The notes under the pieces: model-generated | What the model was told of the DNA's origin: nothing | Database searches by the model: none | Seen by the model: only the letters and a program-made list of their open reading frames with translations | Made by a program: the position numbers and the translations under genes | DNA from: Polaromonas sp. | GTDB lineage: Bacteria > Pseudomonadota > Gammaproteobacteria > Burkholderiales > Burkholderiaceae_C | Reading direction: 5' to 3' | DNA: 64,000 nucleotides | Assembly: GCA_031390175.1 (NCBI GenBank) | Contig: JANMTF010000195.1 | Span: forward strand, 12,941 to 76,940 | Part shown: one piece after another, positions 3,640 to 61,179 of the stretch | How the letters are laid out: every line of letters begins with the position of its first letter | How positions within the stretch are numbered: the first letter of the stretch is position 1

Positions 3640-3860
3640 TGCGGCTAGCAGTGTCCTAGATCTGGAGTCACTCCCCGCAATAAGGCTGCAGACCAATAGA
3701 ATGATGCGGGAGAAGCTCCTGTATATGTAGCGTCTTGCAGGGAGCCTGCGGGTGCGCGCAGGGGCCTCCAGGGGCATACGAGCCCATTCGAGGGCATCCA
3801 AGCGCATCCAAACGGCCAAGACCACGCCTGCGCTGCCCAGTGGCGCGTTCGAGCGGTGCT
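3640..3860 (-). repeat. Degenerate solo half-copy (right-arm type) of the foldback repeat found at 7551-8270 and 8716-9297
   Basis: 3684-3732 reads GGCTGCAGACCAATAGAATGATGCGGGAGAAGCTCCTGTATATGTAGCG. This closely matches 8072-8120 and 9108-9157. The flanking GCGCAGG...CGTTCGAGCG stretch resembles the outer arm of those elements. Confidence 0.6.
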
Positions 3861-3966
3861 CATCCATTGGCCAGCAGGCGCGGCCAGCGATCCGGGTCGA
3901 CTACACAGGGCTGGGGACGGCTCCACCCAGCCATGCGGCCTGCCGCCTTCAGCGACGTGTGGCGTG

Positions 3967-3992
3967 CTAGTCCATTTGTGCAATGTACTAAT
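3967..3992 (+). promoter_or_regulatory. Conserved 26-nt motif copy 1 (CTAGTCCATTTGTGCAATGTACTAAT), 79 nt upstream of the 4046 start codon
   Basis: A near-identical motif recurs at 5026-5054, at almost the same distance (83 nt) from the 5109 start codon. Confidence 0.45.
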
Positions 3993-4045
3993 CGAACTAG
4001 GGAGATTAGATTCCACTTCCATACACATAAAAAGCAAAAACAATC

Positions 4046-4366
4046 ATGTCGTCCATGCCCACCTTTGATCATCTGCACAGCGCCATTGGGCAAGACTGGC
4101 ATATCCATGACGGTGCGCTGCATGTGGAGCAGGTCAAGATTGCCCAGGTGCAGGCAAGCAGGGCCATGAGCGCGCAGCACACGGCTTTTCACCTGACCGT
4201 AGAGATGCCTGTGGGCACTTATGGCGAGCAAGGCATTTACTCCCTGGTGGCCCCCGACGGCCAGGCCTGGTCTATTTTTATGAGCCCCGGCGCACCCTCG
4301 GCCGCTGGCCAGGCCCGCTTGCAGGCCTCTTTCAGTTACCCCAAAGCGTTGGCCACCGCTGCATAG
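4046..4366 (+). CDS. Small hypothetical protein (106 aa), first gene of the tail-collar/collagen-like cluster
   Basis: ATG-initiated ORF with no signal peptide, located 51 nt upstream of the tail-collar gene. I could not assign a family from the sequence alone. Confidence 0.55.
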   Translation: MSSMPTFDHLHSAIGQDWHIHDGALHVEQVKIAQVQASRAMSAQHTAFHLTVEMPVGTYGEQGIYSLVAPDGQAWSIFMSPGAPSAAGQARLQASFSYPKALATAA

Positions 4367-4417
4367 CCAAAGTGGTTAGTTCAGTCTCTTTTTAACTTTT
4401 TATAAAGGAAAAATCTC

Positions 4418-4981: not shown

Positions 4982-5025
4982 GCAATTTCTGCGCCGCCAG
5001 CCTGGACGGGTGGCGGTGTTGTCCA

Positions 5026-7385
<2,360 letters not shown>

Positions 7386-7532: not shown

Positions 7533-7550
7533 CAATAACTTCTCGCCATT

Positions 7551-8270
7551 CCCCCCGAGCTGGTCGTCAGGTTCGTGAAGGCTTGCGCCTTCGGGCAAGC
7601 TCAGGACAGGCCATGCTCGGCCCGAACGGAGTCGCATGCGCTTAAACACGCTCGAACGGCGTGAATAGACTTGGGAGCACCTGCGCACAACTGCCTACCC
7701 AACTCAGAACGCTACACATACAGTAGCTGCTCCCGCATCATTCCAAAGGGCTGCAGCTCTATTGCTATTCTAAAAAGAGCCTCCAACCCGGCATTTTCAG
7801 GCTTTTTACTGTCCCGCAGGCCATTTGCATCGGCTGGGAGGGCGTTAAGTTATGCGAATTTGCTAACTACGCATAATGGCGCAAGAAAAAACGCAAAAAA
7901 AGTGCCAATTTTTCGTTAAATAATGCACGAATAAAACCAAAAATTAGGCAAAATTTGTTGCGGTACATAAATTCGCATAATTTAAGGACTTTTCAAAACC
8001 TGCAAAACCCGCACCAAGCCAGAAAACGCTTCCCAATTGCCCGTTTGGAGCCCTTTTTAAGATACTAATATGGCTGCAGCCCAATAGAATGATGCGGGAG
8101 CAGCTACTGTATGTGTAGCGCATACCAACTGGCACGCAGGCGCTTTGCGGCCCATCCCGCAAATAAGCGCCTACGGGTCTACTGCGTTGTGGCTGCGCTT
8201 GACCTGTTCTGAGCTTGCCCCCAGGGTTGACGCAGTTGCGAACCCAACGACCAACTCAGGGTGAACGGGG
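7551..8270. mobile_element. Non-coding foldback (MITE-like) element, copy 1, ~720 bp with long imperfect inverted arms
   Basis: The left arm CGCTACACATACAGTAGCTGCTCCCGCATCATT... (7710 onward) is the reverse complement of the right arm ...AATGATGCGGGAGCAGCTACTGTATGTGTAGCG (to 8120). The outer arms also pair (CCTGTCCTGAGCTTGCCCGAAGG-type). About 85-90% identical by eye to copy 2. I saw no credible ORF. Confidence 0.7.
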
Positions 8271-8362
8271 TTGATCGGCATGCATTTGTTTGCGGGATTG
8301 GCAATGCATAAAATTTGGGCATAACCAGTAAAGCAGCCGGGTCAATATTCAATCGGCGCTGA

Positions 8363-8599
8363 CAAGACGCAGACGCGCGCATCGCCAAGTCCCACAAACT
8401 CAAGCAAGATGCGGCTATGGCGATTGCCCAATGGATGCAGCCTGAATAGCTCACCCAAGTGGCAGCTGCTGAAATTTTGGATGTATCCAGGCCGCGTGTT
8501 TCAGATTTGGTTAATGCAAAGCTAGGCCGTTTTTTACTGGATACGCTGGTAGGTTTGCTGCTGCGAACCGGCAAGAGCGTGGAGCTGGTGGTGCATTGA
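8363..8599 (+). pseudogene. Remnant of an XRE/HTH-type antitoxin (HigA/HTH_37-like) with an in-frame TAG at 8447-8449 and a truncated N-terminus
   Basis: Manual translation gives ...RIAKSHKLKQDAAMAIAQWMQPE*LTQVAAAEILDVSRPRVSDLVNAKLGRFLLDTLVGLLLRTGKSVELVVH*. LTQ..AAE.L.VS.P.VS.L..GK...F.LDTL is the typical HTH core. No toxin partner is adjacent. Confidence 0.6.
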
Positions 8600-8715
8600 G
8601 TTTGCCGACAAGATCCGCTGCAGACTCCCAGAGCGCCTTGGATGGGTCTGAAACTCCTGATTTCATTGCTTCTTCTGCATATTTCTAAAATGCTAACCAA
8701 TGGATAGGCTTGCAA

Positions 8716-9297
8716 GCGCTTACGCACAGCTGCCTACCCAATTCAGAACGCTACACATACAGTAGCTGCTCCCGCAATACTCTATTGGGCTGCAACCCTA
8801 TGGTTATTATAAAAAGAGCCTCAATCTCGGCATTTTCGGGTTTTTTACCGGTCCGCAGGCCATTTGCACCGGCTGGGAGGGCGTTAAATTATGCGAATTG
8901 GCTAAATACGCATAATGGCACAAGAAAAAACCGCCAAAATGCCTAATTTTCGTTAAATAATGCACGAATATTGTCATAAATCCGGCCAAATCCATGGAGG
9001 CACATAAATTCGCATAACTTAAGGACTTTCCAAAGTCTACAAAGCCCGCACCGAGCCAGAAAATGCTTCCAAATTGCCTGTTTGGGGCCTATATTAAGAT
9101 ACTAATTGGGCTGCAGCCCAATAGAATAATGCGGAAGCAACTATTGTATATGTAGCGCATGAAAACTGGTACGCAGGCGCTTTGTGGCGCATCCCACAGA
9201 TCAGCGCCTACGGGTCCACTGCGTTGGGGCTGAACATGGCCTGTCCTGAGCTTGCCCGAGGGCCGGCTGCCTTGCGAACGCTCAGGCTGGCTCAGAG
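8716..9297. mobile_element. Non-coding foldback (MITE-like) element, copy 2, in direct orientation to copy 1 and lacking most of the left outer arm
   Basis: 8749-8798 and 9108-9157 are inverted copies of the same terminal core. The interior (GGCGTTAAATTATGCGAATT...CGTTAAATAATGCACGAAT...ACATAAATTCGCATAA) is collinear with copy 1. Confidence 0.7.
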
Positions 9298-9332
9298 TGA
9301 TCAAAGAGCGCCTATTTTCAGGAACAGCCAGA

Positions 9333-10496: not shown

Positions 10497-11054
10497 TCAG
10501 TGCCCGGCAAAATCAACCAGGGTAAAGAGTGGCAAGCCTGCGGCGCGCAATTTGTCCGAGCCGTGTAGCTCGGGCAAATCCACTATGGCAGCGCCCTCCA
10601 TGACGGTGGCACCTAGTTTTTCGAGCAGTTTTTTGCCCGCCATCATGGTGCCGCCGGTGGCAATCAGGTCGTCAATCAGCAGCACACGCTGGCCGGGGTG
10701 TACGGCGTCGGTGTGCAGCTCTACCGTGGCGCTGCCGTATTCGAGCTCATAGGTTTCTTCAATGGTGGTAAATGGCAGCTTGCCTTTTTTACGTATAGGT
10801 ACAAATCCGACGTTGAGTTCATAGGCCACTACGGCGCCCAAAATAAAGCCGCGCGCGTCCAGCCCGGCCACCACATCGGGGCGCAGGGCGGGGTCCATGT
10901 AGCGGTGTACAAAGGCGTCGATCAGCACGCGAAACACGCGGGGGTTTTGCAAGAGGGGGGTGATGTCACGAAACTGCACGCCGGGCGCGGGCCAGTCGGG
11001 CACCGTGCGAATGTGGCTGCGCAGGTAGTCGGTAACGGCGGGGGCGGTCAGCAT
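10497..11054 (-). CDS. apt: Adenine phosphoribosyltransferase
   Basis: 185 aa. It contains [21 protein letters not shown] and the PRPP-binding motif [13 protein letters not shown]. Confidence 0.92.
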
Positions 11055-11075
11055 ATTGCGTGGGACAAATGAGGC

Positions 11076-12302: not shown

Positions 12303-12325
12303 ACGAATAGCGTTGTAACGAGGGC

Positions 12326-12940: not shown

Positions 12941-13879
12941 ATGGTCTTGCATTATGCGCCAAAATATGCTTTCGTGTCGAACCCCGTACTTACCCTTGAT
13001 CCTATAGTGTCGCCTTTACGCATCGTTTGCCTAGTTCCCAGCATCACCGAGTTGATCGTGGAGTTGGGTTTGGGCGACTATTTGGTGGGCCGCACGGGGT
13101 TTTGCATCCACCCGGCCGCTGTGGTGAAGCACATCCCCAAGGTGGGCGGCACCAAGGCGGTCAATCTGGACAAAATCCGCGCTCTGGCCCCTACCCATGT
13201 GGTGGTGAATGTGGATGAAAACGAAAAAACCATGGTCGACGCCCTGCGCCCATGGGTGGCGCACATCGTGGTCACACACCCCCAGGGGCCATGGGACAAC
13301 ATGGCTTTGATAGACCAGTTATTGGTCGCATTCGTCCACTCACACGCTATCAATTCAGTAGCTGCTCCCGCAATTATCCAAAGGGCTGAAGACTTGAAAG
13401 AGCAAATTTTCCAGCGCGGGACAGCCTTGCAGGCAGGCCAGGCGCACGCCGGGCTCCAAGCACCTCGCCAGCGCGTGCTTTATTTGATTTGGCAAGACCC
13501 CTGGATGACGGTGGCGAGAGACACGTACATCAGCCGCATGCTGGATTTGATCGGCTGGCAAACCTGGCCCAATGTACAGGGCGGAGATGGCATCGCCACG
13601 CCCGGAGCCGGGCGCTACCCCGTGATTCAGGGCGACGAGCCTTGGCTAGAGGGCATTGACCGCGTGCTGTTGTCGTCAGAACCCTACAGTTTTGGCCCAA
13701 CGCATGTGGCCCAGGTGCAAAATTGGTTGCCCCACACTAAAGTGCAATTGGTGGACGGCGAAATGCTCAGTTGGTACGGCAGCCGCGCCGTCCTGGGCTT
13801 GGACTATTTGGCCGCTCTGTCGACTGGCGGCGCCACAGACTTGGGCGCCGACATTGGGCTGGGCACATCGTCAGCGTAG
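12941..13879 (+). CDS. Periplasmic-binding-protein-fold protein (BtuF-like helical-backbone metal/cobalamin receptor family, no signal peptide); start uncertain
   Basis: RIVCLVPSITELIVELGLGDYLVGRTGFCIHP...VGGTKAVNLDKIRALAPTHVVVNVDEN is typical of this family. It contains an in-frame family-1 repeat at 13359-13391. The 3' end overlaps the convergent anti-sigma gene. Confidence 0.65.
   Translation: MVLHYAPKYAFVSNPVLTLDPIVSPLRIVCLVPSITELIVELGLGDYLVGRTGFCIHPAAVVKHIPKVGGTKAVNLDKIRALAPTHVVVNVDENEKTMVDALRPWVAHIVVTHPQGPWDNMALIDQLLVAFVHSHAINSVAAPAIIQRAEDLKEQIFQRGTALQAGQAHAGLQAPRQRVLYLIWQDPWMTVARDTYISRMLDLIGWQTWPNVQGGDGIATPGAGRYPVIQGDEPWLEGIDRVLLSSEPYSFGPTHVAQVQNWLPHTKVQLVDGEMLSWYGSRAVLGLDYLAALSTGGATDLGADIGLGTSSA
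13359..13391 (+). repeat. Family-1 dispersed element copy, inside a CDS
   Basis: TAGCTGCTCCCGCAATTATCCAAAGGGCTGAAG, translated in the host frame as VAAPAIIQRAED. Confidence 0.8.
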
Positions 13880-14064: not shown

Positions 14065-14122
14065 GGTGGATCACAAAAGTGCTGGCTATGAAAAGGCTGG
14101 TGGGGCGAGAGGGGTCGTGCGC

Positions 14123-15653: not shown

Positions 15654-16358
15654 ATGACATTAAACAAAGTGCGAGTAGATTCCGTGCCAGACAGGTTAGC
15701 CCTTGATTTTGTGCAATTTGCAGTCGAATCAGGCGTGCTGCGCTTTGGCGAATTTACAACTAAAGCCGGTAGATTGTCACCCTATTTTTTCAACGCCGGT
15801 TTGTTTGACGATGGTGCCAAGTTAGGCCGCTTGGCGCAGTTCTATGCGCAGCGCATTATGCAAAGCGGTATCGAGTTTGACATGCTTTTTGGCCCGGCTT
15901 ACAAGGGCATCCCGCTAGCAGCCGCGGTGGCCATCGAGCTGGCGCGCCTGGGCCGCAACGTGCCCTATGCCTACAACCGCAAAGAGGCCAAAGACCATGG
16001 CGAAGGCGGCACCTTGGTAGGCGCACCGGTCAAAGGCCGGGTGCTGATAGTGGACGACGTGATGTCGGCGGGTACCGCCGCGCGCGAGTCGATTGCCATC
16101 ATTACTGCCGCGGGTGCCAAGCCCCACGCGGTCACCATTGCCTTGGACCGACAAGAAAAAGCCACTGAAATCAAAGATGGCCGGGCCCAAGACGTGCCGC
16201 ATAGTGCCGTGCAATACGTCACTAATGTGCTCGGCCTACAGGTTTGTGCGATTGCGAACCTGGCTGATTTATTGCACTATCTACAGTCTAGCGGGGTTAA
16301 TATGGCGCAGCATACTGTGGCTGTGCAGGCCTACCGAGATCGCTACGGTGTTGCCTGA
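15654..16358 (+). CDS. pyrE: Orotate phosphoribosyltransferase
   Basis: VLRFGEFTTKAGRLSPYFFNAGLF...PAYKGIPLAAA...VLIVDDVMSAGTA. ATG at 15654; a GTG at 15651 is an alternative start. Confidence 0.92.
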   Translation: MTLNKVRVDSVPDRLALDFVQFAVESGVLRFGEFTTKAGRLSPYFFNAGLFDDGAKLGRLAQFYAQRIMQSGIEFDMLFGPAYKGIPLAAAVAIELARLGRNVPYAYNRKEAKDHGEGGTLVGAPVKGRVLIVDDVMSAGTAARESIAIITAAGAKPHAVTIALDRQEKATEIKDGRAQDVPHSAVQYVTNVLGLQVCAIANLADLLHYLQSSGVNMAQHTVAVQAYRDRYGVA

Positions 16359-16419
16359 CAACCCCGCGTCACCCTGTTGCGTTACAACCAGCATGAACAC
16401 CGCGCTACACTGGAGTCCC

Positions 16420-17067
16420 ATGAGATTGAGCGTTAAATTATCGTTGTGTGCCGGGCTATGGCTAGCCAGCGCGCTAGCTTGGGGGCAAATTTACACCTGT
16501 ATAGATGCCAAAGGCCGCAAACTCACCTCTGACCGCCCCATCCCAGAATGCGCTGACCGTGAGCAAAAAGAGCTCAACAACAGCGGCACCGTCAAGCGCA
16601 CGGTCAAACCTGCAATGACGGCGGAAGAACAGCGTGTTTTTGACGAAAAAGAAAAGCAAGCTACCGAAGAGCGCCTGCGCCTGAACGAAGAAAAACGCAA
16701 AGACCGCGCCTTGCTCACCCGCTACCCTAGCCGTCCCAGCCATGACAAAGAGCGCTCCGACACACTGGCGCAAGTAGATGACGTGATGAAAGCGGCAACC
16801 AAACGTGTTGGCGAACTGGCGGTGCAACGCAAAGAGATCGATACCGAGCTGGAGTTTTACAAAAAGAACCCTGCCAAAATACCCCTGTCACTCAAGCGCC
16901 AAATCGAAGACAACGATGCCAGCGTGGCGGTGCAAAAACGCTTTATCGTTGACCAGGAGTCGGAGAAAAAGCGCACCAATGCACGCTTTGACGATGAACT
17001 GGTGCGGCTTAAAACGCTGTGGCTGCTTACCGCCACGCCAACAGCAACAGCGGCACCTAAAAAATAA
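16420..17067 (+). CDS. Secreted DUF4124-like protein with a coiled-coil, Lys/Glu-rich body
   Basis: MRLSVKLSLCAGLWLASALAWGQIYTCIDAKGRKLTSDRPIPEC is a signal peptide followed by the (I/V)Y(K/T)C.D..G....SD.P motif. An ATG at 16393 is an alternative start. The upstream part of the 16093 ORF overlaps pyrE. Confidence 0.7.
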   Translation: MRLSVKLSLCAGLWLASALAWGQIYTCIDAKGRKLTSDRPIPECADREQKELNNSGTVKRTVKPAMTAEEQRVFDEKEKQATEERLRLNEEKRKDRALLTRYPSRPSHDKERSDTLAQVDDVMKAATKRVGELAVQRKEIDTELEFYKKNPAKIPLSLKRQIEDNDASVAVQKRFIVDQESEKKRTNARFDDELVRLKTLWLLTATPTATAAPKK

Positions 17068-17074
17068 GCTATTT

Positions 17075-17111
17075 AGGGCTGTAGCCATTTAAAATATTGC
17101 GGGAGCAGCTA
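17075..17111 (-). repeat. Family-1 dispersed element copy (intergenic, between convergent genes)
   Basis: AGGGCTGTAGCCATTTAAAATATTGCGGGAGCAGCTA. Confidence 0.8.
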
Positions 17112-17153
17112 TTTTATCAATAGCGTGTTGTAGACGACATCCGCTCTCCCGCA

Positions 17154-36435: not shown

Positions 36436-36732
36436 TTGGCCGCGCTGGCGCAGGCGCAGCGGCTGCGCAGCTTTCGCGCGCTGGTGGTGGCGGGCTGCGA
36501 TGGGCTCACACCCAGTGCGCTGGCTGCGCTGCTGGACATTGCACCCAGCGCGCTGTCGTTCCACCTCAAAGAGCTATCCTACAGCGGCTTGGTCAGCGCC
36601 GAGCAACGCGGGCGCAACCTGATTTACCGCGCTCACTACGCGCAAATGAACGCCTTGCTGGCTTACCTGACCGAGCACTGCTGCGCGGGGCAAGCCTACG
36701 CTGTGGGAGGCAGTGACGCTGCCTGTTGTTAA
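36436..36732 (+). CDS. arsR: ArsR/SmtB-family metalloregulator
   Basis: LAALAQAQRLRSFRALVVAG..LTPSALAALLDIAPSALSFHLKELSYSGLV..EQRGRNLIY followed by a C-terminal Cys cluster. TTG start; no in-frame ATG is available. Confidence 0.85.
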   Translation: MAALAQAQRLRSFRALVVAGCDGLTPSALAALLDIAPSALSFHLKELSYSGLVSAEQRGRNLIYRAHYAQMNALLAYLTEHCCAGQAYAVGGSDAACC

Positions 36733-36781
36733 GAAAAATATTATCCGGCAATCTTGTCCTATTTACCAAGGAGCATGCACC

Positions 36782-37300
36782 ATGAAACGCTTTCACGTTC
36801 ACCTCTGTGTTAACGACATCGCTCCGTCAGTGGGCTTCTACAGCACCTTGTTTGGCCACGCACCCAGCGTGCAAAAGCCAGACTACGCCAAGTGGATGCT
36901 GGACGACCCGCGCATCAATTTTGCCATCTCTGCACAAGGCCATGCCGCCGGGCTGGACCACTTGGGTTTTCAGGTCGAAAGCGCCGACGAGCTGCACGAG
37001 ATGACGGACGCCTTGCAACGCGCTGGTGTAGCCGTCACAGGCCAAGGCGCGGCAACCTGCTGCTATGCGCAAAGCGAAAAGGGCTGGGTGCATGACCCGC
37101 AAGGCATTGCATGGGAGAGCTTTGTCACCACCGGCCAGTCCACCACCTACGGGGCTGATCGCACAGAACAACCCGTCAGTGCGAGGGCATGCTGTGCACC
37201 TGCTGATTCCCAAATGGCTACGAAGCCGACGCTGCAAAACATTCAGATCGCGCCTGCCAGCTGCGGTGTACCCCGTGCAACAGCAGCAAGCTGCTGCTAG
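36782..37300 (+). CDS. arsI: ArsI/CadI-family VOC (glyoxalase-fold) metalloenzyme
   Basis: MKRFHVHLCVNDI...LDHLGFQV...ATCCYAQSEKGWVHDPQGIAWESF, with a vicinal Cys pair typical of ArsI. An AAGGAG RBS lies upstream of 36782. Confidence 0.7.
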   Translation: MKRFHVHLCVNDIAPSVGFYSTLFGHAPSVQKPDYAKWMLDDPRINFAISAQGHAAGLDHLGFQVESADELHEMTDALQRAGVAVTGQGAATCCYAQSEKGWVHDPQGIAWESFVTTGQSTTYGADRTEQPVSARACCAPADSQMATKPTLQNIQIAPASCGVPRATAASCC

Positions 37301-37325
37301 CTTCTTTAAATTACTATAAATACAA

Positions 37326-37360
37326 TAGCTGCTTCCGCAATATTCTATTGGGCTGGTGGC
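37326..37360 (+). repeat. Family-1 dispersed element copy (arsI-arsC intergenic)
   Basis: TAGCTGCTTCCGCAATATTCTATTGGGCTGGTGGC. Confidence 0.8.
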
Positions 37361-37388
37361 ACTATTTACTACATGCAAGGCTCATACC

Positions 37389-37886: not shown

Positions 37887-38578
37887 GTGCGCCTGAAGCG
37901 CCTATCTACACGCTCTCACAAAAAGCCTTTGCTGAATGCATTGGCACAGCGATGCTGCTGTGCGCAGTGATTGGCTCGGGCATCATGGCCGAACGTTTGA
38001 GCGGCGGCAACAACGGCGTGGCACTGCTGGCCAACACCCTGGCCACGGTGTTTGCACTGTTTGTATTGATCGAAGTGCTGGGCCCCATCAGCGGGGCACA
38101 CTTTAACCCGCTGGTAACACTGTTTTTTATACGAAATCAGCCTCTAGCCCTACAGAATATTGCGGGAGCAGCTATTGTATTTATAGTAGCCAAGTTGCTG
38201 GGTGCTGTGCTCGGCGCGTGCCTTGCCAACGCCATGCTTGACCCGCCCGCGCTGCACACCAGCGCCAAACTGCGCGGCGGCTGGGGCCAGTAGTGGGCCG
38301 AGGCGGTAGCCGTCGCAGGCTTGGTCTTTGTTATCGCCCGCTCCGGCGCGGTCTACGTGCATGCCAAGGCCAGCGCACTGGTGGCCTGCTATATCGGCGC
38401 GGCTTACTGGTTTACCGCCAGCACCTCATTCGCCAACCCTGCTGCCGTGCTGGGCCGCATGCTGAGTGACAGCTTTGCGGGCATCGCTCCAGCAAGTGCG
38501 CTTGGCTTTGTGGCAGCGCAGAGTGTGGGTGCTGCTGTGGGCTGGCTCGCTAGTAAACAGTTAGACGCGCCTGGGTAA
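37883..38578 (+). pseudogene. MIP-family aquaporin/aquaglyceroporin interrupted by an in-frame TAG at 38291-38293 and carrying a family-1 repeat
   Basis: AFAECIGTAMLL...GAHFNPLVTL...KLRGGWGQ*WAEAVAVAGLVFVI...WFTASTSFANPAAVLGR. Both half-ORFs (37883..38293 and 38321..38578) are in the same frame. Confidence 0.75.
38141..38186 (-). repeat. Family-1 dispersed element copy inside the aquaporin reading frame
   Basis: CCTCTAGCCCTACAGAATATTGCGGGAGCAGCTATTGTATTTATAG, translated as PLALQNIAGAAIVFIV. Confidence 0.8.
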
Positions 38579-38610: not shown

Positions 38611-39015
38611 CTAAAGCGACAGCAATGACAGGCCAGCGTAGCTGGCAAATTCTTTGTCGAATGACACCAAGCGAAGACTCGCTACCTGGGCGAACGCGGC
38701 TAGATAGGTATCTGTCCAATCGGTGTTGCGAAAGGTCGCTTGCGCAGTAAGTTTGCGCATCGCAGTGTCGATACCTGGCGGCTCCGCCATGACGCTGACC
38801 TCGGGCAGATTTATCACTGCTTGGTAGGCCTGCCACGCCTGCTCTTGGGTGTAGGGCGTACCGCCCATCACAGCTTTATTGGTAGACAGGCGCAGTCGCC
38901 CCAGCATGGTGATGCGGCAAAACACCATGCGTTCGGAGCCCGCTTTTTCCCAGTAAAGTTTTGCTGCTGGGTGATGCACATGCTGCGCATTCAATAGGGC
39001 CAACCAGACATTCAC
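38611..39015 (-). CDS. vapC: PIN-domain toxin (VapC family); first canonical start (GTG 39015) lies after the conserved N-terminal Asp
   Basis: VNVWLALLNAQHVHHPAAKLYW... In-frame upstream codons read STQGDLPD, with no ATG, GTG or TTG before the stop. Confidence 0.7.
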   Translation of the reverse strand: MNVWLALLNAQHVHHPAAKLYWEKAGSERMVFCRITMLGRLRLSTNKAVMGGTPYTQEQAWQAYQAVINLPEVSVMAEPPGIDTAMRKLTAQATFRNTDWTDTYLAAFAQVASLRLVSFDKEFASYAGLSLLSL

Positions 39016-39325: not shown

Positions 39326-39434
39326 AAAAAGCACTTTATGCATATTTTGCATTTCGGTGCGCCAACAACGTTTGCCAGACCGTACCTGAACAGCAAACTG
39401 GCTAGAAATGCATTTCGCCGTTTTACAAATAAAA

Positions 39435-39472
39435 ATAGCTGCTCGCCCAATAATAAATTGCGCAAGCAGCTA
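39435..39472. repeat. Family-1-related hairpin (two half-cores in inverted orientation)
   Basis: ATAGCTGCTCGCCCAATAATAAATTGCGCAAGCAGCTAT lies downstream of the phoX stop. Confidence 0.7.
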
Positions 39473-39527
39473 TTAAATTCGTAGTGCGCTCTGCCATAGC
39501 AGAGCATCACTGGTTAGTCAGGACATT

Positions 39528-43851: not shown

Positions 43852-43892
43852 AGCGTGAACAACTCAAAAAAATGAAACAATATCGCTACTAA

Positions 43893-43940
43893 TAAAATAG
43901 CTGTTCCCGCAATATTCTATGGGGCTAGAGCTCTATTTTA
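43893..43940 (+). repeat. Family-1 dispersed element copy (gst-recQ intergenic)
   Basis: TAAAATAGCTGTTCCCGCAATATTCTATGGGGCTAGAGCTCTATTTTA, with complementary AAAATAG/CTATTTT flanks. Confidence 0.85.
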
Positions 43941-43981
43941 ATGGATGAAAGGGCGTGGATTGAGGTTTACTTGCACTGCGC

Positions 43982-44644: not shown

Positions 44645-44744
44645 GGGTAAACTCCGGTAGTGAAGCCGCTGATTTTAAGGCCGTTTACGTCACGGTAACA
44701 CCGTTGGCGATCTGCTTAAAGGGTAGTTTTATATGCCGTTTATG

Positions 44745-44790
44745 CCCCTAAACCTCTAGAACATTGCGCAAGCAGCTATGAAATTAATAG
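44745..44790 (-). repeat. Family-1 dispersed element copy overlapping the 44778 start codon
   Basis: CCCTAAACCTCTAGAACATTGCGCAAGCAGCTATGAAATTAATAG. The ATG of the YchJ-like ORF lies in the AGCAGCTATG part of the core. Confidence 0.7.
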
Positions 44791-45221
44791 TATCTGAAAA
44801 AACCTGTCCATGCCGTCAGCGAGAGGAGGTGCCGACGGCCTACGCTCAGTGCTGTCAGCCGTGGCACCAGGGCTTGCAGCATGCAGTGCATGCCACTACG
44901 CCCGAGCAGTTGATGCGCTCGCGCTACAGCGCCTATGCACTGGCTACCCACAACAACCCTCAAGGCCACACCATGCTGGCCTACGTGCAGGCCACTTGGC
45001 ACCACGGCAGCGCGCCGGGTGATTGGGAATTCTCCCCCATCCAGTGGACGGGCTTGGAAGTTCTCAACTCCGAACAATCGCAGGACGCGGGCATTGTGGA
45101 GTTTGTCGCCTATTACAAAGAGAACGGCAAAGCGCACAAGATGCACGAAATCAGCCGCTTTGTCCGCAGCGACGACGGCGCGCGGTGGTTGTACATTGAT
45201 GGACAAGCGGGCCAAGCCTAA
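44778..45221 (+). CDS. YchJ-family (UPF0225, SEC-C-motif) protein
   Basis: CPCRQ...AYAQCCQPWH...PEQLMRSRYSAYAL...W.GLEV......G.VEFVAYYKENGK...HEISRFVR.DG.WLYIDG. Confidence 0.75.
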   Translation: MKLIVSEKTCPCRQREEVPTAYAQCCQPWHQGLQHAVHATTPEQLMRSRYSAYALATHNNPQGHTMLAYVQATWHHGSAPGDWEFSPIQWTGLEVLNSEQSQDAGIVEFVAYYKENGKAHKMHEISRFVRSDDGARWLYIDGQAGQA

Positions 45222-45248
45222 GCCCCTGATGGGCCAAACCTGTCGTAG

Positions 45249-45782
45249 CTAGTCTTGCGGCTCAAGCAGTATGGACACTGCGCTGGCATTGGTGTGCCAA
45301 TGCTGTGTGCGGGATGTATGGCGGCGCAGGTCGCTTAAAAATGCTGCCATTTCCAATAAGTTGCAACCGTTGCGCCAACCAACCGCACGGTTCGGAAACA
45401 TGCGCACCCGTGCGCGGGCATCGGTCATCAACACATGCCATTGGCGCGGGCGAAGGTGCAAACGAATGGCTTGTGTGATCGCCTCTACTTCTGGCTCAAC
45501 GCCTTCAAAAAGACAAATCCACCGGTCACTCCCAGCCATGACGATACCGGTAATGCTGCTGGCCGTGTCCAACGCACACATCGCCTCCACCCAAGCCTGG
45601 ATGTCAGACATGGGCGTAAGCGGGTTGTTGACGCTTAAGAAAACCGTCTTTTGAATCAGCTGTGCGGAACGCACCATAAGGCAGTATGTTTCATTCGGCG
45701 CTTCTTGATTTGCGGGCCGGGGAATTGTCAAAATTGAACTTGGTGACTGGTGCAAGTTTGGACTGCACATGCACTGTTTCAA
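45249..45782 (-). CDS. BLUF-like domain protein (apparently degenerate flavin site)
   Basis: YCLMVRSAQ...ITGIVMAGSDRWICLFEGVEPEVEAITQAIRLHLRPRQWHVLMTD...RMFPNRAVGW follows the BLUF pattern Y.L.Y.S...ITG.L.....F.Q.LEG....V..L...I..D.RH..V. The start is uncertain. Confidence 0.55.
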   Translation of the reverse strand: MKQCMCSPNLHQSPSSILTIPRPANQEAPNETYCLMVRSAQLIQKTVFLSVNNPLTPMSDIQAWVEAMCALDTASSITGIVMAGSDRWICLFEGVEPEVEAITQAIRLHLRPRQWHVLMTDARARVRMFPNRAVGWRNGCNLLEMAAFLSDLRRHTSRTQHWHTNASAVSILLEPQD

Positions 45783-45954
45783 TGCATTAACGACGTGTAT
45801 TAATGAATATTTGACGATGCAATGCCGTTACTTTAATGCGCTTTACGAGTGATAAATGTCACGTAAGTTAGGAGTAACTTCTCTATTTTTGCAAGCGCGC
45901 AGTCATACTTTAGTTTGCAAAAATATGCGGCACCGCCTACCAAGCGTTAACGAC

Positions 45955-46455
45955 TCAGGCCTTCTGCACACGTTCAGCGTAGCGGTTAAACCGCCATGCA
46001 CTGCCTTCTAGCGTAATGCGTTGCCACACCGCTCGCTTAGCGGCCGGGGCCAGCTCTGGCCAGTGTTGTACCTCGCCAAAGCTGCGCCCACAGCCTTTGC
46101 AGAAGTCGTCACCTTGGCTGGTGGAGCAAATGGCGATGCAAGGTGTATCGGGCGTGCTCTCGTACCACAACAGCCAAGCGGCGTAGGCCTTGCGGGGCAT
46201 GCTGCGCTCGTCCGCCCTGTCTTGGTGGTAAAAAACCAACAAGGCATACACCTCTGCCAAAGCGCGCAACTCGGGTGCCAAGGTAATGCCATCGGGTGAA
46301 GGCGCGCGTGCACGCCAATAGTTAATGGCTGCTTCTATGTCGGTGATGTGGATGCCCAAGCTGCTTGGGCCGCTGGAAACAGGCGCGGCAACGGAGCTAG
46401 TGGGCGTATGGAGGGCTATCGTGGACATGGGAATCGGATGATACCGCGCTGTCAC
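45955..46455 (-). CDS. Hypothetical protein with C-terminal DUF1289-like Cys motif
   Basis: PCIAICSTSQGDDFCKGCGRSFGEVQHWPEL resembles the C.G.C......C.GC.R...E...W motif. The N-terminal half (IHITDIEAAINYWRARAP) is of unknown function. Confidence 0.6.
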   Translation of the reverse strand: MTARYHPIPMSTIALHTPTSSVAAPVSSGPSSLGIHITDIEAAINYWRARAPSPDGITLAPELRALAEVYALLVFYHQDRADERSMPRKAYAAWLLWYESTPDTPCIAICSTSQGDDFCKGCGRSFGEVQHWPELAPAAKRAVWQRITLEGSAWRFNRYAERVQKA

Positions 46456-48194: not shown

Positions 48195-49883
48195 TCAGTT
48201 CAGTGGTTTGTCGTTATGCAGTTCGCGTACCAGTACCTGCACCGCGCGGGTCCGTGCATCGATGATGGACGATTCAATGTGGTCAGGCGTAACCAAGCGC
48301 CTGGCAAGATCTTGGCCGGCTTTCAAACGGTCCAAAGCGGCCGAGTAGTCCAGCAAAGCCATCCGTGCCTCAGCTTGCGCGCGGATGGCGCGCAGGGGCT
48401 GATTTTTGGCGGTGTAAGCGCCGGCCAGTGCATCCCAGGCAGGCGCATCGTTGGGCCGCCCAACCACCCAGCTTTGTAGACGCTCTATCACTTCGGCTAA
48501 GGTATCGTGTACACCAGATAGCTTGGTCGCTGACTGGGCCCACAGCAGCAAAGCCGCACGCTGTTGCACACGAGCAGGCGCCACGCGCAATGGGCCATTG
48601 GGCACCTGCGCAGCCACATAAGGCAACAATGCGGCCTGTGCTTTGGTGTGGTTGCCCTGAGCCATGGCAATTTCAGCTACTATTAAATCGATAGCTGCTC
48701 TCGCATTATTTTGTTGGGCTAGTGCCGGATTTTTATCACTTTCCAGTAATTGAACTGCGCTGGCAGCCAGACTACTGGCAGTCGACAAATCACGCAGCTT
48801 AAACGCTGCCAAACTGCCCCCATAGAGCTGGCCAATGGCTTGGGCTTGGGTTGCGCGCTGCGGGTTGGCCGTGGAAGTAGCAGTAAGAGTAGCAGGCACA
48901 GTGGCAGCCACGCGGCGCGCCTGCGCCAGCTCTGAGCGCAGCTTGTCTACGCCAGGGTCGGCCAGCAGGCGCGATCGCGTAGCAATGATGGCGTGCTCTA
49001 TGGCCAGCACCTCGTTTTCTTGCGCGGCTGTGGCGCGGCCAGTGGGTTTACTGAGCCCACTGGGCGGGCTCAGTTGCAAGCGGGCCTGCATATCGCCTAT
49101 GCGCTCGCTGGTCAATGGATGCGTGCGCAGGTAGGGAAAACTGCCGTTGTCGTTGATGCGGTTGGCCAAGGCCAGTTTGTCGAACATGCCCACAAAGCCT
49201 TGCACGTCGAATTGCGCGTCTTGCATCACTTGGTAGCCTACGCGGTCAGCTTCGCGCTCCATATCGCGAGAAAAATTAAGCTGCGCTTGCGCACCCACCG
49301 CTTGGCTGCCGGTGATGACCGCATTGGCCACATCGGAATTTTTGCGCGCTGCCAATGCGCCCAAGATCATTGCGCCTAGCAATACCGGTCCCATCTGGTT
49401 TTGCTGCGTCGTCATGCGCGCTATGTGGCGCTGCGTCACATGGCTGAGCTCATGCGCCATCACCGAGGCCAGCTCGTCGCGGTTGGCCACCATGGCGATC
49501 AAACCCAGGTGCACGCCCATATAACCGCCAGGCAGGGCAAAGGCGTTGACCGTGCGGTCACGCGCCAACACCACTTCCCAGGCAAAGCGCTCGGCCAGCT
49601 GGGGCGTGATATCGCCGCGCTGGCGCGCGGTTTGCAGCAAGGGCTGCCAAATGCGCTGCAAATAGTCGGCGATCAAAGGATCGTCCAGATAGTCTGGATC
49701 ACGGTAAATCTCGCGCGCAATACGCTGGCCTAGCTGGCGCTCAGCCGCCACGCTCATCTCTTGCCCATCACCCAGTTGCGGCAAACTGCTTTGGCTGGAT
49801 ACCTGCGTTGGCAGCAAAGCAGACGCTACAAATAAAGTAGCTGCTCCCGCAATACTCCGGAGGGCTAGAGGCCTTTTTTGCAT
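48195..49883 (-). CDS. M48-family periplasmic metalloprotease with TPR-like C-terminal domain (BepA/YfgC-like)
   Basis: HELSHVTQRH (HExxH) lies in a BepA-like context, with LPQLGDG after the signal peptide. It contains two family-1 repeat copies in frame. Confidence 0.85.
   Translation of the reverse strand: MQKRPLALRSIAGAATLFVASALLPTQVSSQSSLPQLGDGQEMSVAAERQLGQRIAREIYRDPDYLDDPLIADYLQRIWQPLLQTARQRGDITPQLAERFAWEVVLARDRTVNAFALPGGYMGVHLGLIAMVANRDELASVMAHELSHVTQRHIARMTTQQNQMGPVLLGAMILGALAARKNSDVANAVITGSQAVGAQAQLNFSRDMEREADRVGYQVMQDAQFDVQGFVGMFDKLALANRINDNGSFPYLRTHPLTSERIGDMQARLQLSPPSGLSKPTGRATAAQENEVLAIEHAIIATRSRLLADPGVDKLRSELAQARRVAATVPATLTATSTANPQRATQAQAIGQLYGGSLAAFKLRDLSTASSLAASAVQLLESDKNPALAQQNNARAAIDLIVAEIAMAQGNHTKAQAALLPYVAAQVPNGPLRVAPARVQQRAALLLWAQSATKLSGVHDTLAEVIERLQSWVVGRPNDAPAWDALAGAYTAKNQPLRAIRAQAEARMALLDYSAALDRLKAGQDLARRLVTPDHIESSIIDARTRAVQVLVRELHNDKPLN
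48679..48737 (+). repeat. Family-1 dispersed element copy inside the M48 protease CDS
   Basis: ACTATTAAATCGATAGCTGCTCTCGCATTATTTTGTTGGGCTAGTGCCGGATTTTTATC. The host (minus-strand) frame reads DKNPALAQQNNARAAIDLIVAE. Confidence 0.75.
49828..49880 (+). repeat. Family-1 dispersed element copy forming the 5' end of the M48 protease CDS
   Basis: ACAAATAAAGTAGCTGCTCCCGCAATACTCCGGAGGGCTAGAGGCCTTTTTTG. The host frame reads MQKRPLALRSIAGAATLFVA. Confidence 0.8.
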
Positions 49884-50093
49884 GTAAATACAATCAATAC
49901 AAATGGATGGATAAACAAACTACGGCTTAAGATGAGCACACCGATACAAGCCCTGTCACTGCCAGATTTAATGCAAAATATGCACCGCTAGTCTGCACGC
50001 CGCCTTTCCAGAGATTTCCTGCGCCGGACATACGCTTATGATGCCAAGTAAAGATAAAGGTTGCGTAAAGAGATGTTGAAGGTAACAAACAAT

Positions 50094-53396: not shown

Positions 53397-53418
53397 AATT
53401 CCAACTATCTTCTGTACC

Positions 53419-57609: not shown

Positions 57610-57614
57610 GCCGT

Positions 57615-58448: not shown

Positions 58449-60496
58449 CGCGGGCTGGTACCGCAAGCATCGCAGCCAAGCCACTTTGGTTAACCCACAT
58501 CTGGCCCACGCGCAGGCGAGTACTATGGGCCCTATTGGTCGTCTTGGTGGTGGCTTTGTTGGTGCTCTTGGTGTGGTTGGCCGGGCGCTACGAGGCCAGC
58601 CAAGTGCAAGCGCGCCTGGAGCGTGACGCTACCGAGGCCGCCAGTGACATACGCGTAGCCCTGACCCGCAATGTGCAAAGCTTGCAGGCGCTTCAGGCGG
58701 CGCAGTCTGAGCCCAATGCCTGGGCCCAGGAAGCCACCGCCATACTGCGCGGGCACCGAGAGCTGGTGCGCATTGAATGGCGCGACTTGCAGTTCAATGT
58801 CCGCACAGAGGCGAACTCGCCATTCCAAAAACCCTTGTTCAACCAACTGGCCCGAAGCAGCTCGCAAAGTGAACTCCAACTGGCCTGTAGTTTGGCCCGT
58901 CGCTTGAGTGGTCCGGCCTATTCCAGCAGCCATTTTGTGCCACAGCCTGATGGCTTGGGGCTAGAGCTGATCGAGCTGTGCATGCCGCTGACCATGGCCG
59001 GTCAAAACAGCGGCTACTTGGTGGCCACCTATGCGCTGCAAAGCATATTGACCGAACTGATTGGCAAGCAACTCACCCGGGGGCAGGAGGTGTCGTTTAC
59101 CGAAGCCGATGGCACACGCTTGGCTATTCACGGCACTACGCTGCGCGGCAGCCGTGTATTTACCGCCCAGCAACTGCTGGATTTGCCTGGCAACACATTG
59201 GTAGTGCGTATGGACAGCTGGCGCGGCGCGCCCGCCCTGTTCCCCAATGTGTTGACGGCTTTGGTCACCCTAATGGCCGTGGCGTTGGTATGTGTATTGG
59301 TACTGCTGGGCAAAGACATCAGCAAACGCCTGCGCGCGGAGCGCGAACTGGCAGAAGCTTTGGCATTTCGCAAAGCCATGGAAGACTCTCTCGTCACCGG
59401 CATGCGCGCGCGCGACTTGCAAGGCCGCATTACCTACGTGAACCCAGCCCTGTGCCAAATGACGGGCTATTCCGCCGCTGAGCTGGTGGGTATTACGTCG
59501 CCCATGCCGTATTGGCCGCCCGAGCTGGCCAACGAATATGAGCAACGCCAGGCTGTGCGCTTGGCTGACAACCGGCCCTCACGCCAGGGCTACGAGTCGG
59601 TGTTTGTGCGCGAAGATGGCACGCGGTTTCCGGTGCTGATTATTGAGGCTCCTCTGATCAATGCCCTGGGCACGCAAACTGGCTGGATGAGCGCCATCCT
59701 GGACATGACCGACCAGCGGCGCATGGAAGAACTCTCGCGCGCAAGCCTGGAGCGGCTGCAGGCCAGCGCCCGCTTGGCTACGGTGGGCGAGATGGCCTCC
59801 CTGCTCAGCCATGAGCTGAACCAGCCTCTGGCGGCCATCTCCAGCTACGCCACTGGCTCGCTCAACATGCTGCAAGCGCACGCCGCTTTGAGCCCGCAGG
59901 ATATGGAGCACGCCATGCGCCGTATCGGCGAGCAGGCCGAACGAGCCGGCAAAGTGATCAAATCTGTCCACAACTTTGTGCGCCGCCGTGACCAAGCCCA
60001 CGAGAAAATCGCGCCCAGCGCCTTGCTCGACGCCATCATGCCTCTGGTGAGCCTGCAAGCGCGCAAGCTGGGCGTGCGGGTGCAGGTGCAGTGCGCGCCC
60101 GATCTGGCAGCCGTGCTGTGTGACCGCACGATGGTGGAGCAAGTGCTGCTGAACCTGGCGCGCAATGCCATGCAAGCCATGGAGCATGTGCCGATAGATC
60201 AGCGCATACTGGGGCTAGAAGTTCGGGCCACTATGCGCTTGAGCGCCCAGCTGGACGACACCCAAACCAGCCGTCGTTGGATGGAATTTACCGTGACCGA
60301 TTGCGGCGGGGGTATCGATGCCGCGACGGCAGAGCGTTTGTTTACCCCGTTTTTTACTACCAAAAAGGAAGGCATGGGCTTGGGTCTGAGCATGTGCCGC
60401 ACTGTGGTGGAACAACACGGCGGCTTTCTCGCCTACGAGCCGCGCAAGCCACGCGGGACTATGTTTAAATTCACCCTACCTACTCATAAAATCTAG
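58445..60496 (+). CDS. Sensor histidine kinase (periplasmic sensor, PAS, HisKA, HATPase_c)
   Basis: Two TM segments and a PAS region (ITYVNPALCQMTGYSAAELVG). H-box LLSHELNQPLAAI and HATPase_c boxes NLARNAMQAM...DCGGGI...GMGLGLS are present. It shares an ATGA overlap with the upstream gene. Confidence 0.88.
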   Translation: MTRAGTASIAAKPLWLTHIWPTRRRVLWALLVVLVVALLVLLVWLAGRYEASQVQARLERDATEAASDIRVALTRNVQSLQALQAAQSEPNAWAQEATAILRGHRELVRIEWRDLQFNVRTEANSPFQKPLFNQLARSSSQSELQLACSLARRLSGPAYSSSHFVPQPDGLGLELIELCMPLTMAGQNSGYLVATYALQSILTELIGKQLTRGQEVSFTEADGTRLAIHGTTLRGSRVFTAQQLLDLPGNTLVVRMDSWRGAPALFPNVLTALVTLMAVALVCVLVLLGKDISKRLRAERELAEALAFRKAMEDSLVTGMRARDLQGRITYVNPALCQMTGYSAAELVGITSPMPYWPPELANEYEQRQAVRLADNRPSRQGYESVFVREDGTRFPVLIIEAPLINALGTQTGWMSAILDMTDQRRMEELSRASLERLQASARLATVGEMASLLSHELNQPLAAISSYATGSLNMLQAHAALSPQDMEHAMRRIGEQAERAGKVIKSVHNFVRRRDQAHEKIAPSALLDAIMPLVSLQARKLGVRVQVQCAPDLAAVLCDRTMVEQVLLNLARNAMQAMEHVPIDQRILGLEVRATMRLSAQLDDTQTSRRWMEFTVTDCGGGIDAATAERLFTPFFTTKKEGMGLGLSMCRTVVEQHGGFLAYEPRKPRGTMFKFTLPTHKI

Positions 60497-60502
60497 CGCA
60501 CT

Positions 60503-61129
60503 ATGCAACCCATCCAAGATGCCACTGTTTATATCGTAGACGACGATACCGGCGTGCGCGATGCGCTGGCTTGGTTGCTACGCTCGCGCCGCCTTCCGCA
60601 TGAGTCGTTTGACAGTGCCGAGGCGTTTTGGGCTAACGTGGCGCAAAACTACAATCCCCGCCAAGCCAGCTGCCTGCTGCTGGACGTGCGCATGCCCGGC
60701 ATGAGCGGGCTAGCCCTGTTTGAGCAACTGCAAACCAAGCCATGGGCCGCAGCGCTACCGGTGATCTTTCTCACCGGCCATGCCGATGTACCGACTGCGG
60801 TCGATGCCGTCAAACGGGGTGCGTTTGATTTTTATGAAAAACCGTTTTCAGACAACGCCCTGGTAGACCGCATAGAGCAAGCACTGGCCGTGAGCGCCAC
60901 CGTCGTGCAAGCTACCAAAGCCCACGACAGCCTGCGCCACCGCCACGACGAGCTGACCGAACGCGAGCGCGATGTGATGCGCCTGGTAACCGACGGTCTG
61001 CCCAACAAACTGATCGCCGATCAGCTCGACATCAGTGTGCGCACCGTGGAGGTGCACCGTGCCCGGGTGTTCGACAAAATGGGCGTGAAGTCTGCAGTTG
61101 AGTTGGCTAATTTGCTACGTAATTTATAG
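60503..61129 (+). CDS. FixJ/NarL-family response regulator (REC + LuxR HTH)
   Basis: VYIVDDD...LLLDVRMPGMSG...FYEKPF, followed by LTERERDVMRLVTDGLPNKLIADQLDISVRTVEVHRARVFDKMG. Confidence 0.9.
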   Translation: MQPIQDATVYIVDDDTGVRDALAWLLRSRRLPHESFDSAEAFWANVAQNYNPRQASCLLLDVRMPGMSGLALFEQLQTKPWAAALPVIFLTGHADVPTAVDAVKRGAFDFYEKPFSDNALVDRIEQALAVSATVVQATKAHDSLRHRHDELTERERDVMRLVTDGLPNKLIADQLDISVRTVEVHRARVFDKMGVKSAVELANLLRNL

Positions 61130-61179
61130 CTGCTCCCGCAATATTTTATTGGGCTAGAGCCGGATTTTGCTAAAAATAG
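61121..61179 (+). repeat. Family-1 dispersed element copy overlapping the response-regulator stop codon
   Basis: AATTTATAGCTGCTCCCGCAATATTTTATTGGGCTAGAGCCGGATTTTGCTAAAAATAG. The TAG stop at 61127-61129 is the first three bases of the core. Confidence 0.85.

Follow-up and report, generated by a model that had tools for sequence, protein, structure and literature searches.

Repetitive extragenic palindromic (REP) sequences form species-specific families which lie mostly in extragenic DNA 3' of genes, occur without target duplication, are often arranged as inverted doublets (REPINs), and depend on a single-copy gene for a REP-associated tyrosine transposase (RAYT); they are also known to stabilise the mRNA upstream of them. 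These features have reportedly been described several times, and evolution of such families by gene conversion is said to have been proposed. In many bacteria, no other non-coding feature of the genome is as common as interspersed repeats of the REP/REPIN class, and their long persistence and uniformity are still debated. From Polaromonas, the Betaproteobacterial repeat element (BRE) has been described (Hot et al. 2011, PMC3110155), an element of about 90 bp and 69% G+C which forms tandem arrays (variable-number tandem repeats) and reaches its greatest abundance in Polaromonas sp. JS666. Here, we describe family-1, a repeat found in a 64-kb stretch of DNA from Polaromonas sp. (contig JANMTF010000195.1, positions 12,941 to 76,940; hereafter the window). 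Family-1 is a real, very abundant and mostly intergenic repeat of Polaromonas with one copy per 3–4 kb. It is an unusually clean case of an interspersed repeat: individual copies can be traced from one Polaromonas lineage to several others at unchanged sites, where they visibly change in concert with the other copies of their own genome. We give about even chances to the reading that family-1 is a REP/REPIN-like, non-autonomous repeat which is recognised by a protein factor encoded elsewhere and maintained by conversion.

Family-1 is an abundant repeat of Polaromonas

The window has about 58% G+C and contains housekeeping genes including purK, gatA/gatB, recQ, phoX and a gene for an M48 protease; a tRNA/tmRNA scan of the window found none. 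An earlier note on this DNA had listed at least 15 dispersed copies of family-1 in both orientations. A profile built on these copies with nhmmer returned from the window exactly the same 15 at E < 1e-10, eight on the plus and seven on the minus strand; all are real, and none is expected by chance. The 33-mer that had been quoted as the core gave four matches at ≤3 mismatches, with zero expected from shuffles. The positions listed earlier were roughly right, but several starts had been placed too late, omitting the first 13–17 bp, or the tail was omitted (corrected in Table 1). Additionally, the profile search detected a partial copy inside purK (1114–1141, E 3e-4).

Related DNA was obtained by scanning one genome per species by pattern, which gave at least 64 loci; L numbers designate the related contigs or records compared with the window. 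Among the matches listed were Polaromonas metagenome-assembled genomes (MAGs) nearly throughout, one Rhodoferax and one betaproteobacterium, and several of the listed loci matched parts of the window at 82–94% identity. At least 10 species-level genomes of Polaromonas carry family-1, and so do one Rhodoferax MAG and a plasmid record of Rhodoferax antarcticus. The latter held the only two copies in the plasmid and viral collections; both are diverged, and one has a perfect TAGCCCTTAT/ATAAGGGCTA hairpin where the core would be. No copy was present in viral contigs (IMG/VR). Furthermore, a distant set of 80 metagenome loci (L065–L144, 383 kb), gathered with the flanking glutathione S-transferase (GST) gene, contained no copy; these loci are at most 69% identical and lack synteny, so that no empty sites could be obtained from them and they served as negative control.

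The earlier note had called the density high. Eight contigs were picked via RecQ homologues, a choice in which repeat content played no part. Among them, seven copies per 22 kb were found in L146 and six to seven per 22 kb in L148, which confirms the high density in sister contigs; L150 had three to five and L145 one to four copies per contig, and four other contigs had none. The density in L146 and L148 is the same as in the window, and copies are not restricted to duplicated segments, so that the refuting condition set by the earlier note does not hold. The window itself contains one duplicated segment pair (Table 1), the sole place where local duplication raises its copy number. The pair holds only four of the 15 copies; family-1 is therefore no artefact of local duplication.

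Structure of the unit and of its inverted pairs

An alignment of 114 copies from the window and the 64 related loci, anchored on the profile, gave a unit of about 67 bp instead of the 35–50 bp assumed before. Behind its sharp 5' end, the unit consists of the dyad GCTAY-N7-RTAGC, then the core TGCTCCCGCAATATTCTATTGGGCTAGAGGC and finally an AT-rich tail; its consensus is YRCTAY-N7-RTAGCTGCTCCCGCAATATTYTA-NN-GGGCTRNAGSC-NN-ATT-N8-AAAAA. The 5' boundary lies 13–17 bp before 'TAGCTGC', and the information profile reaches to about position 67. RTAG at positions 14–17 is near invariant (T15, A16 and G17 at 1.6–2.0 bits; A or G at position 14). This possible counterpart of the REP-type GTAG/GTRG precedes the arms CTGC(T)CCC...GGG(CT)GCAG, yet it doubles as the 3' arm of the dyad.

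The unit had been taken for an imperfect palindrome with complementary AAATAG/CTATTT flanks, a description that found no support. Folded as single-stranded DNA, nine of ten window copies were within z-scores of −1.2 to +1.0 relative to dinucleotide shuffles, and the copy at 39420–39486 formed the sole hairpin (z −7.6). RNAalifold found essentially no consensus structure in 112 copies (−0.23 kcal/mol). Covariation beyond that of shuffles was absent from three candidate helices, namely the 5' hairpin and the stems CTGC(T)CCC/GGG(CT)GCAG and AAATAG/CTATTT, all of which pair as often as column-shuffled controls do, and Rfam gave no match either at the gathering threshold or at E ≤ 5. The conserved feature is the primary sequence, not pairing, which speaks for a unit recognised by a protein and against one acting as folded nucleic acid. 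An integron attC site and a Xer/dif site were rejected on sequence, with neither a GTTRRRY core nor dif-like arms found.

The dyad was also counted separately. The window contains nine matches to GCTAYN7RTAGC as compared to 0.13 expected; L146, L148, L150, L145, L147, L152, L155 and L156 contain three to seven per 14–22 kb, L149 two, L151 and L154 one each, and the 383 kb of the distant set none. The spacing is almost always exactly 7 nt, the only notable departure being three N6 matches in L150. Several lineages that bear the dyad lack the family-1 core. In place of the window-type 3' half (TGCTCCCGCAATATTCTATTGGGCTAGAGGC), L145 has TGCTTACGCTATATTTTATTGGGCTACAGCC, L155 TGCTTGCGCATATTCCACGCTGGCTA, L147 and L149 TGTTTGAGCAATAAATACTTGGACTACAAGC, and L152 TCAATAAATACCGGGGCGA. 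The 5' dyad marks a wider superfamily, the 3' part of which differs by lineage. A constant dyad combined with a lineage-specific 3' half makes phylogenetic profiling for a partner protein feasible.

Single units make up about 80% of the family-1 copies. The others form inverted pairs which face each other with their CGCTAC ends outermost; seven pairs measure 222 bp, three 409–411 bp, and a few have other sizes. The 222-bp class consists of long, imperfect foldbacks whose two arms measure about 95 and 105 bp. Terminal inverted repeats of this length (about 95–105 bp) occur only in such composites and are absent from the single-unit majority. Both approximately 410-bp composites of the window sit in the duplicated segment of about 540 bp, whose two versions are 83–86% identical; in the first version (7662–8198), the composite arms of 98 nt are 78% complementary. 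Target-site duplications of 2–8 bp were found at none of the boundaries tested, which comprised 93 single copies and the 7 + 3 composites.

The composites could also be explained by a classical MITE (miniature inverted-repeat transposable element). The 222-bp and 410-bp elements would then have arisen by deletion from an insertion sequence (IS) of the DDE type with terminal inverted repeats of about 95 bp, the 67-bp singles would be solo terminal repeats remaining after deletions, and target duplications would have eroded with age. This agrees with the long terminal inverted repeats, the non-coding interior of fixed size and the sharp outer end; the flanking intergenic DNA is substitution-saturated, and short duplications could have vanished from it. 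MITEs are, moreover, reported from Polaromonas sp. JS666, as PMC10969869 cites Mattes et al. (2008). However, we regard this origin as unlikely: no boundary tested shows a duplication, singles outnumber composites about 5:1, and an IS with family-1 ends was found neither in the loci nor in PLSDB plasmids nor in the viral contigs of IMG/VR. Erosion would, furthermore, leave the concerted evolution at orthologous sites unexplained, which is described below.

Copies persist at orthologous sites and evolve in concert

A syntenic block of 15 kb (about 83% nucleotide identity) links the window to L146, and all five copies in it are common to both. Six genomes have the copy upstream of recQ (those of the window, L048, L146, L148, L145 and, in part, L150), although the gene on its far side varies between GST, a thioesterase, a chromate transporter and tgt. 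These orthologues carry a private GCTACTA variant and hence descend from one insertion. At orthologous sites the family-1 core is better kept than the flanking intergenic DNA, which is itself near substitution saturation. A search of the repeat-selected loci for empty sites found none, each orthologous site being occupied by a copy.

Four orthologous sets were compared: the copies upstream of recQ, downstream of the PALP gene, at the AAA stop and downstream of phoX, and inside the M48 gene. Copies of diverged lineages are closer to non-orthologous copies of their own genome than to their orthologues. The L147 copies show an identity of 0.72–0.75 to their own family as compared to 0.41–0.65 to orthologues, the M48 copy of L155 0.69 as compared to 0.47–0.50, and the L148 copies 0.74–0.81 as compared to 0.41–0.82. 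The L148 copy upstream of recQ is an exception with about equal values (0.81 to its own family, 0.53–0.82 to orthologues). Position 28 illustrates the pattern: it is G in six of seven L148 copies, including all three orthologous ones, and A in 15/15 window copies and in six of the seven L146 copies. This pattern, the most informative of the results, is one of concerted evolution. Independent mutation cannot produce it; a homogenising process (gene conversion or templated replacement) must act on the copies, or else all sites track a co-evolving binding protein.

The second of these possibilities would make family-1 a set of host-function binding sites, at which a chromosomal nucleoid-associated, topological or regulatory protein binds dyad and core, with selection acting site by site and the sites co-evolving with the protein in each lineage. 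Preservation of the core above its flanks is as expected for such sites, and so are the symmetry of GCTAY-N7-RTAGC, typical of a dimeric binding site, the lineage-specific variants shared by all copies, and the AT-rich rare codons retained at the M48 copies in lineages down to 56% protein identity, where third-position G+C is 0.21–0.42 as compared to 0.64–0.70 for the gene. We nevertheless consider this improbable. It would demand parallel selected substitutions at about 1000 sites, which is implausible; the inverted pairs of fixed size and the 410-bp composite in the duplicated segment look like mobile DNA; copies have decayed in whole lineages, for example in L154, and the recQ copy of L145 is degenerate; and no rule of orientation or position relative to promoters exists.

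Placement relative to genes

Many copies were said to sit just past stop codons, and a location mostly just beyond gene ends was borne out. The 19 intergenic copies of the window, L146 and L148 comprise nine in convergent, seven in tandem and three in divergent gaps. They often occupy most of a gap of 80–100 bp, and their orientation to the neighbouring genes is not fixed. Scans with consensus promoter and terminator patterns matched one copy each. Family-1 accounts for many short intergenic regions and for several disputed start codons in Polaromonas annotations.

A position just past stop codons, together with the over-representation of convergent gaps (9/19), would suit a cis-acting RNA element, namely a terminator, a stabiliser of mRNA 3' ends, as is established for REPs, or a small RNA. 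The folding energies equal to those of shuffles, the missing consensus structure and covariation, and the negative Rfam search even at E ≤ 5 make such a role very unlikely, and so do the occurrence in both orientations relative to flanking genes and a terminator pattern in only one of eight copies of the scanned stretch.

Copies might alternatively act as mobile promoters. On the reverse strand, a −10-like TAGAAT/TAAAAT (positions 37–32), often with an ATG in the tail, would drive outward transcription and sometimes provide a start codon. The hexamer is conserved, with C/T variation that preserves the −10-like sequence; the single consensus promoter match, in copy 43884, is aimed at recQ; at recQ, at ychJ and at the M48 gene, the 5' end of a copy is 6–41 bp from where the gene starts; and the M48 start codon falls within the element. 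However, about half of the copies are directed at a stop codon or situated between convergent genes, a −35 element is not conserved, and promoter-like sites in the scanned region are as frequent as in shuffles (5 found, 5.1 expected). We therefore hold a promoter function to be extremely improbable.

Copies inside coding sequences

Four copies had been placed within reading frames and two over a start or stop codon, which is about right: copies 13345, 38122, 48678 and 49824 are in frame, and copies 17059 and 61113 overlap stops. All four in-frame copies and the partial copy in purK are read through. At both M48 copies, the alignment with homologues is free of gaps down to an identity of 54%. 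The G+C content at third codon positions (GC3) is 0.21 at copy 48678 and 0.64 for the whole M48 gene. In the M48 orthologues of L154, L155 and L156 (68%, 63% and 56% protein identity), the DNA is still element-like at both places, with a GC3 of 0.21–0.45 as compared to 0.64–0.70 for the whole gene. The purK copy is gap-free in alignment with solved PurK structures and hence no insertion. The aquaporin copy adds at most 4–6 residues relative to the distant homologue AQP3, and in L033 the orthologous copy lies within an intact gene.

The start codon of the M48 gene is disputed because of the repeat. A protein from NCBI that is 100% identical to the M48 protease of the window has 520 aa and starts 42 codons downstream (window 49757–49883); the orthologues called by JGI (555–563 aa) take in the element-encoded, signal-peptide-like N-terminus. 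The aquaporin gene of the window has an in-frame TGA at 38291–38293 (GGWGQ*WAEAV) where L033 has TGG (Trp); it is either a pseudogene or affected by a sequencing error. In-frame copies also form part of a signal peptide in L064 (2487–3050, minus strand; KKVAASAVFYWATAIF) and lie within a FabH-like gene in L023 (6212–7000, minus strand; LALAQSNIAGAAT).

Gene-internal copies allow insertion to be told from replacement. Their unchanged protein length is the basis of an alternative in which templated replacement, not insertion, spreads and maintains the family, the master sequence of a lineage overwriting resident DNA. Either an enzyme that acts at the GCTAY-N7-RTAGC dyad might bring this about, or the annealing of single-stranded copies at replication forks. 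Such a process would explain together the lineage variants shared by about 1000 copies, the missing target duplications, the sharp boundaries and the essentially constant protein length; it would also cover the rare AT-rich codons kept across genera in the purK, M48 and aquaporin copies. We consider this alternative unlikely.

The favoured explanation and the search for a transposase

In the REP/REPIN-like explanation that we favour, the dyad and the adjacent 30 bp or so would be recognised by a sequence-specific protein whose gene lies elsewhere in the genome. The likeliest candidate is a transposase or recombinase of HUH/RAYT type, acting without target duplication. Units would have spread long ago, singly and as inverted foldbacks of 222 bp and 410 bp, chiefly into short gaps behind genes, and they have stayed at their sites through speciation. 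Within each lineage, gene conversion between copies or an enzyme-mediated replacement of copy by copy may have homogenised them, so that orthologous copies carry lineage-specific variants; the same process might overwrite tolerant coding stretches without changing protein length. Family-1 copies are, moreover, likely breakpoints of assemblies and of rearrangements.

Several observations weigh against this explanation. No insertion polymorphism, that is, a filled as compared to an exactly empty site, was seen, and mobility is inferred from architecture. The orthologous sample is small (four sets from six lineages). Ordinary RecA recombination would be an inefficient means of conversion between 67-bp repeats of only 70–85% identity. 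Typical copies lack the stable hairpin that defines REP sequences, and a plain insertion of 67 bp would not predict the unchanged length of the M48 and PurK proteins. Finally, the candidate enzyme did not appear in the search space, which consisted of the window and related DNA (995 kb). As the earlier note had stated, the window holds no cognate transposase, and a scan for HUH/Y transposase motifs found nothing. A tblastn search with E. coli RayT, a query verified against PDB 4ER8, gave only spurious matches in L058 and L050; these weak matches lie on the strand opposite to long open reading frames (ORFs) that, judged from their translations, are apparently of amidohydrolase type. A RAYT gene (Y1/HUH, PF01797) flanked by inverted copies was likewise absent from the window and the 995 kb. 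ORFs situated between inverted copies (L023, L015, L064, L058, L057 and L056) were read from their translations only, without a family search; none is transposase-like, and they look like a FabH-like gene, a secreted protein or non-coding DNA.

Copies and neighbouring features of the window

The positions of all copies and of the duplicated segments are compiled in Table 1.

Table 1. Family-1 copies and duplicated segments in the window.
Feature	Position	Strand	Context and orthologues	Score or basis
Copy	3666..3732	-	Long-arm subtype, 3' of thioredoxin-TPR gene	nhmmer 45.9 bits, gene map
Copy	7710..7776	+	Left arm of 411-bp composite 7710-8120	
Copy	8054..8120	-	Right arm of composite 7710-8120	
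Copy	8749..8815	+	Left arm of 409-bp composite 8749-9157	
Copy	9091..9157	-	Right arm of composite 8749-9157	
Duplicated segment, first	7662..8198		About 540 bp, one composite; orthologous in L027, L034	
Duplicated segment, second	8701..9235		About 540 bp, one composite	
Copy	13345..13411	+	In frame within BtuF/HmuT-like periplasmic binding-protein gene (AINSVAAPAIIQRAEDL)	
Copy	17059..17125	-	Convergent gap; tail over stop of ORF 16252-17067; 5' end 28 bp from gatB stop	
Copy	37312..37378	+	Between glyoxalase-like gene and next gene; orthologue at L025 2379	
Copy	38122..38188	-	In frame within aquaporin gene (PLALQNIAGAAIVFIV); orthologue in L033	56.8 bits, top score
Copy	39420..39486	-	'TTGCGC' variant, 3' of phoX; orthologous in L146, L148, L147	
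Copy	43884..43950	+	5' end 32 bp upstream of recQ; orthologues in L048, L146, L148, L145, L150 (partial)	
Copy	44726..44792	-	Divergent gap, between GST and ychJ-like genes; orthologues in L048, L146	
Copy	48678..48744	+	Within M48 protease gene (NPALAQQNNARAAIDLIV)	
Copy	49824..49890	+	Encodes M48 protease start codon and signal-peptide-like N-terminus (MQKRPLALRSIAGAATLFVA)	
Copy	61113..61179	+	Covers last 17 nt of LuxR-type response-regulator gene	
Partial diverged copy	1114..1162	+	Within purK, reverse frame ARAQAATQCIA	

Several neighbouring features were noted. Just upstream of the composites, an ORF of 770 aa (5073–7385) has five stretches of collagen triple-helix repeats (Pfam E 2.6e-35), and a partly homologous gene is present in L027. 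Between the composites (8400–8600, plus strand) lies a decayed gene resembling an antitoxin of XRE/HTH type, which reads MAIAQWMQPE* and continues in another frame as LTQVAAAEILDVSRPRVSDLVNAKLGRF...VELVVH. The minus-strand ORF at 8179–8727 (182 aa) has no Pfam match and is probably no gene. A glyoxalase/ArsI-like gene (36713–37300) is absent at the orthologous site of another Polaromonas species (window 36700–37292 as compared to L025 2335–2359), and copy 37312 adjoins this indel with its 5' end. A stretch of 755 bp (window 45206–45961) with a minus-strand ORF of 160–177 aa is missing in L048 (1786–1879); its edges carry no family-1 copy. Copies adjoin PIN/VapC toxin–antitoxin modules in the window (38611–39015) and in the Rhodoferax antarcticus plasmid record (L153, 5223–5869), which may be coincidence.

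Two further observations concern related loci. In L147 (8366–10642), the phoX-like gene has the reverse orientation to recQ as compared to the window, L146 and L148, and a copy of the lineage type at 10765 lies beside the breakpoint; the inversion may thus be associated with the repeat. Other repeat families surround the long-arm composites throughout L056 and L057 and in L058 (7230–7640); among them are GC-rich units that translate as ...RAHPSPSE... and a shared stretch ...GVRSKFRTTL.... The end of L057 carries a fragment of an IS66-like transposase (VPFTNNLAEQALRM).

Comparison with known repeat families

The earlier note had called family-1 REP- or MITE-like. Density, placement and the two orientations agree with this, but the stable hairpin of a REP and the target-site duplication of a MITE are missing. 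Its behaviour is closest to that of REP/REPIN elements, with membership short of established. Among interspersed repeats, family-1 is a variant of the REP/MITE kind which is old, lineage-specific and homogenised within lineages.

DNA uptake sequences (USS/DUS) resemble family-1 in their regular density, in inverted pairs behind genes, in copies within ORFs that leave the length unchanged, and in lineage 'dialect' variants common to all copies, which for USS/DUS are explained by biased recombination. However, their cores of 9–12 bp can arise by point mutation, whereas the 45–65-bp block of family-1, with its sharp end and its composites of fixed size, cannot.

BRE, a repeat of Comamonadaceae and Bordetella, is like family-1 mostly intergenic, with some copies overlapping or inside ORFs. 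BRE is GC-rich and tandem, whereas the copies of family-1 are scattered and have a higher A+T content than the genome. Identity of the two was rejected on these differences in composition and arrangement and on the absence of the family-1 core from the text-format supplementary files on BRE. Apart from BRE, the literature searched describes for Polaromonas only the MITEs mentioned for JS666. A search of the literature with the core sequence matched only unrelated primers, the JS666 genome paper (Mattes 2008) lying outside that search.

Rickettsia palindromic elements (RPE) are likewise translated in frame within functional proteins, and they are old and vertically inherited. In contrast to family-1, which keeps the length of the M48 and PurK proteins and adds at most 4–6 residues to the aquaporin, RPEs add residues; the sequences are unrelated, and RPEs belong to another bacterial group.

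The MITEs Correia/NEMIS of Neisseria and ERIC/IRU of enterobacteria are non-coding elements of 200–400 bp with long terminal inverted repeats; they are dispersed in intergenic DNA, occasionally overlap gene ends and can supply promoter or start signals, features that recall family-1. Family-1 differs from them by lacking a target-site duplication (TA in Correia), by consisting mostly of single arms and by having no known parent IS. Classical MITE membership was rejected on the missing target duplications, although erosion in old copies is possible, and on the absence of a parent IS from the loci, plasmids and viral contigs.

From the REP/BIME and REPIN–RAYT systems of E. coli, Pseudomonas and Stenotrophomonas, family-1 differs in its unit of 67 bp without a stable hairpin (a REP unit is an imperfect palindrome of about 20–40 nt), in conserving sequence and not pairing, in doublets of 222–410 bp as compared to about 100 bp in known REPINs, in its stable orthology across species and in-frame location inside genes, and in that no RAYT was found in the 995 kb. 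With these same systems it shares a density of hundreds per genome, a mostly extragenic location with a bias to 3' and convergent positions, both orientations, the absence of target duplications and of a transposase beside the copies, inverted doublets, a lineage-specific consensus that evolves in concert and, possibly, a conserved RTAG beside complementary arms.

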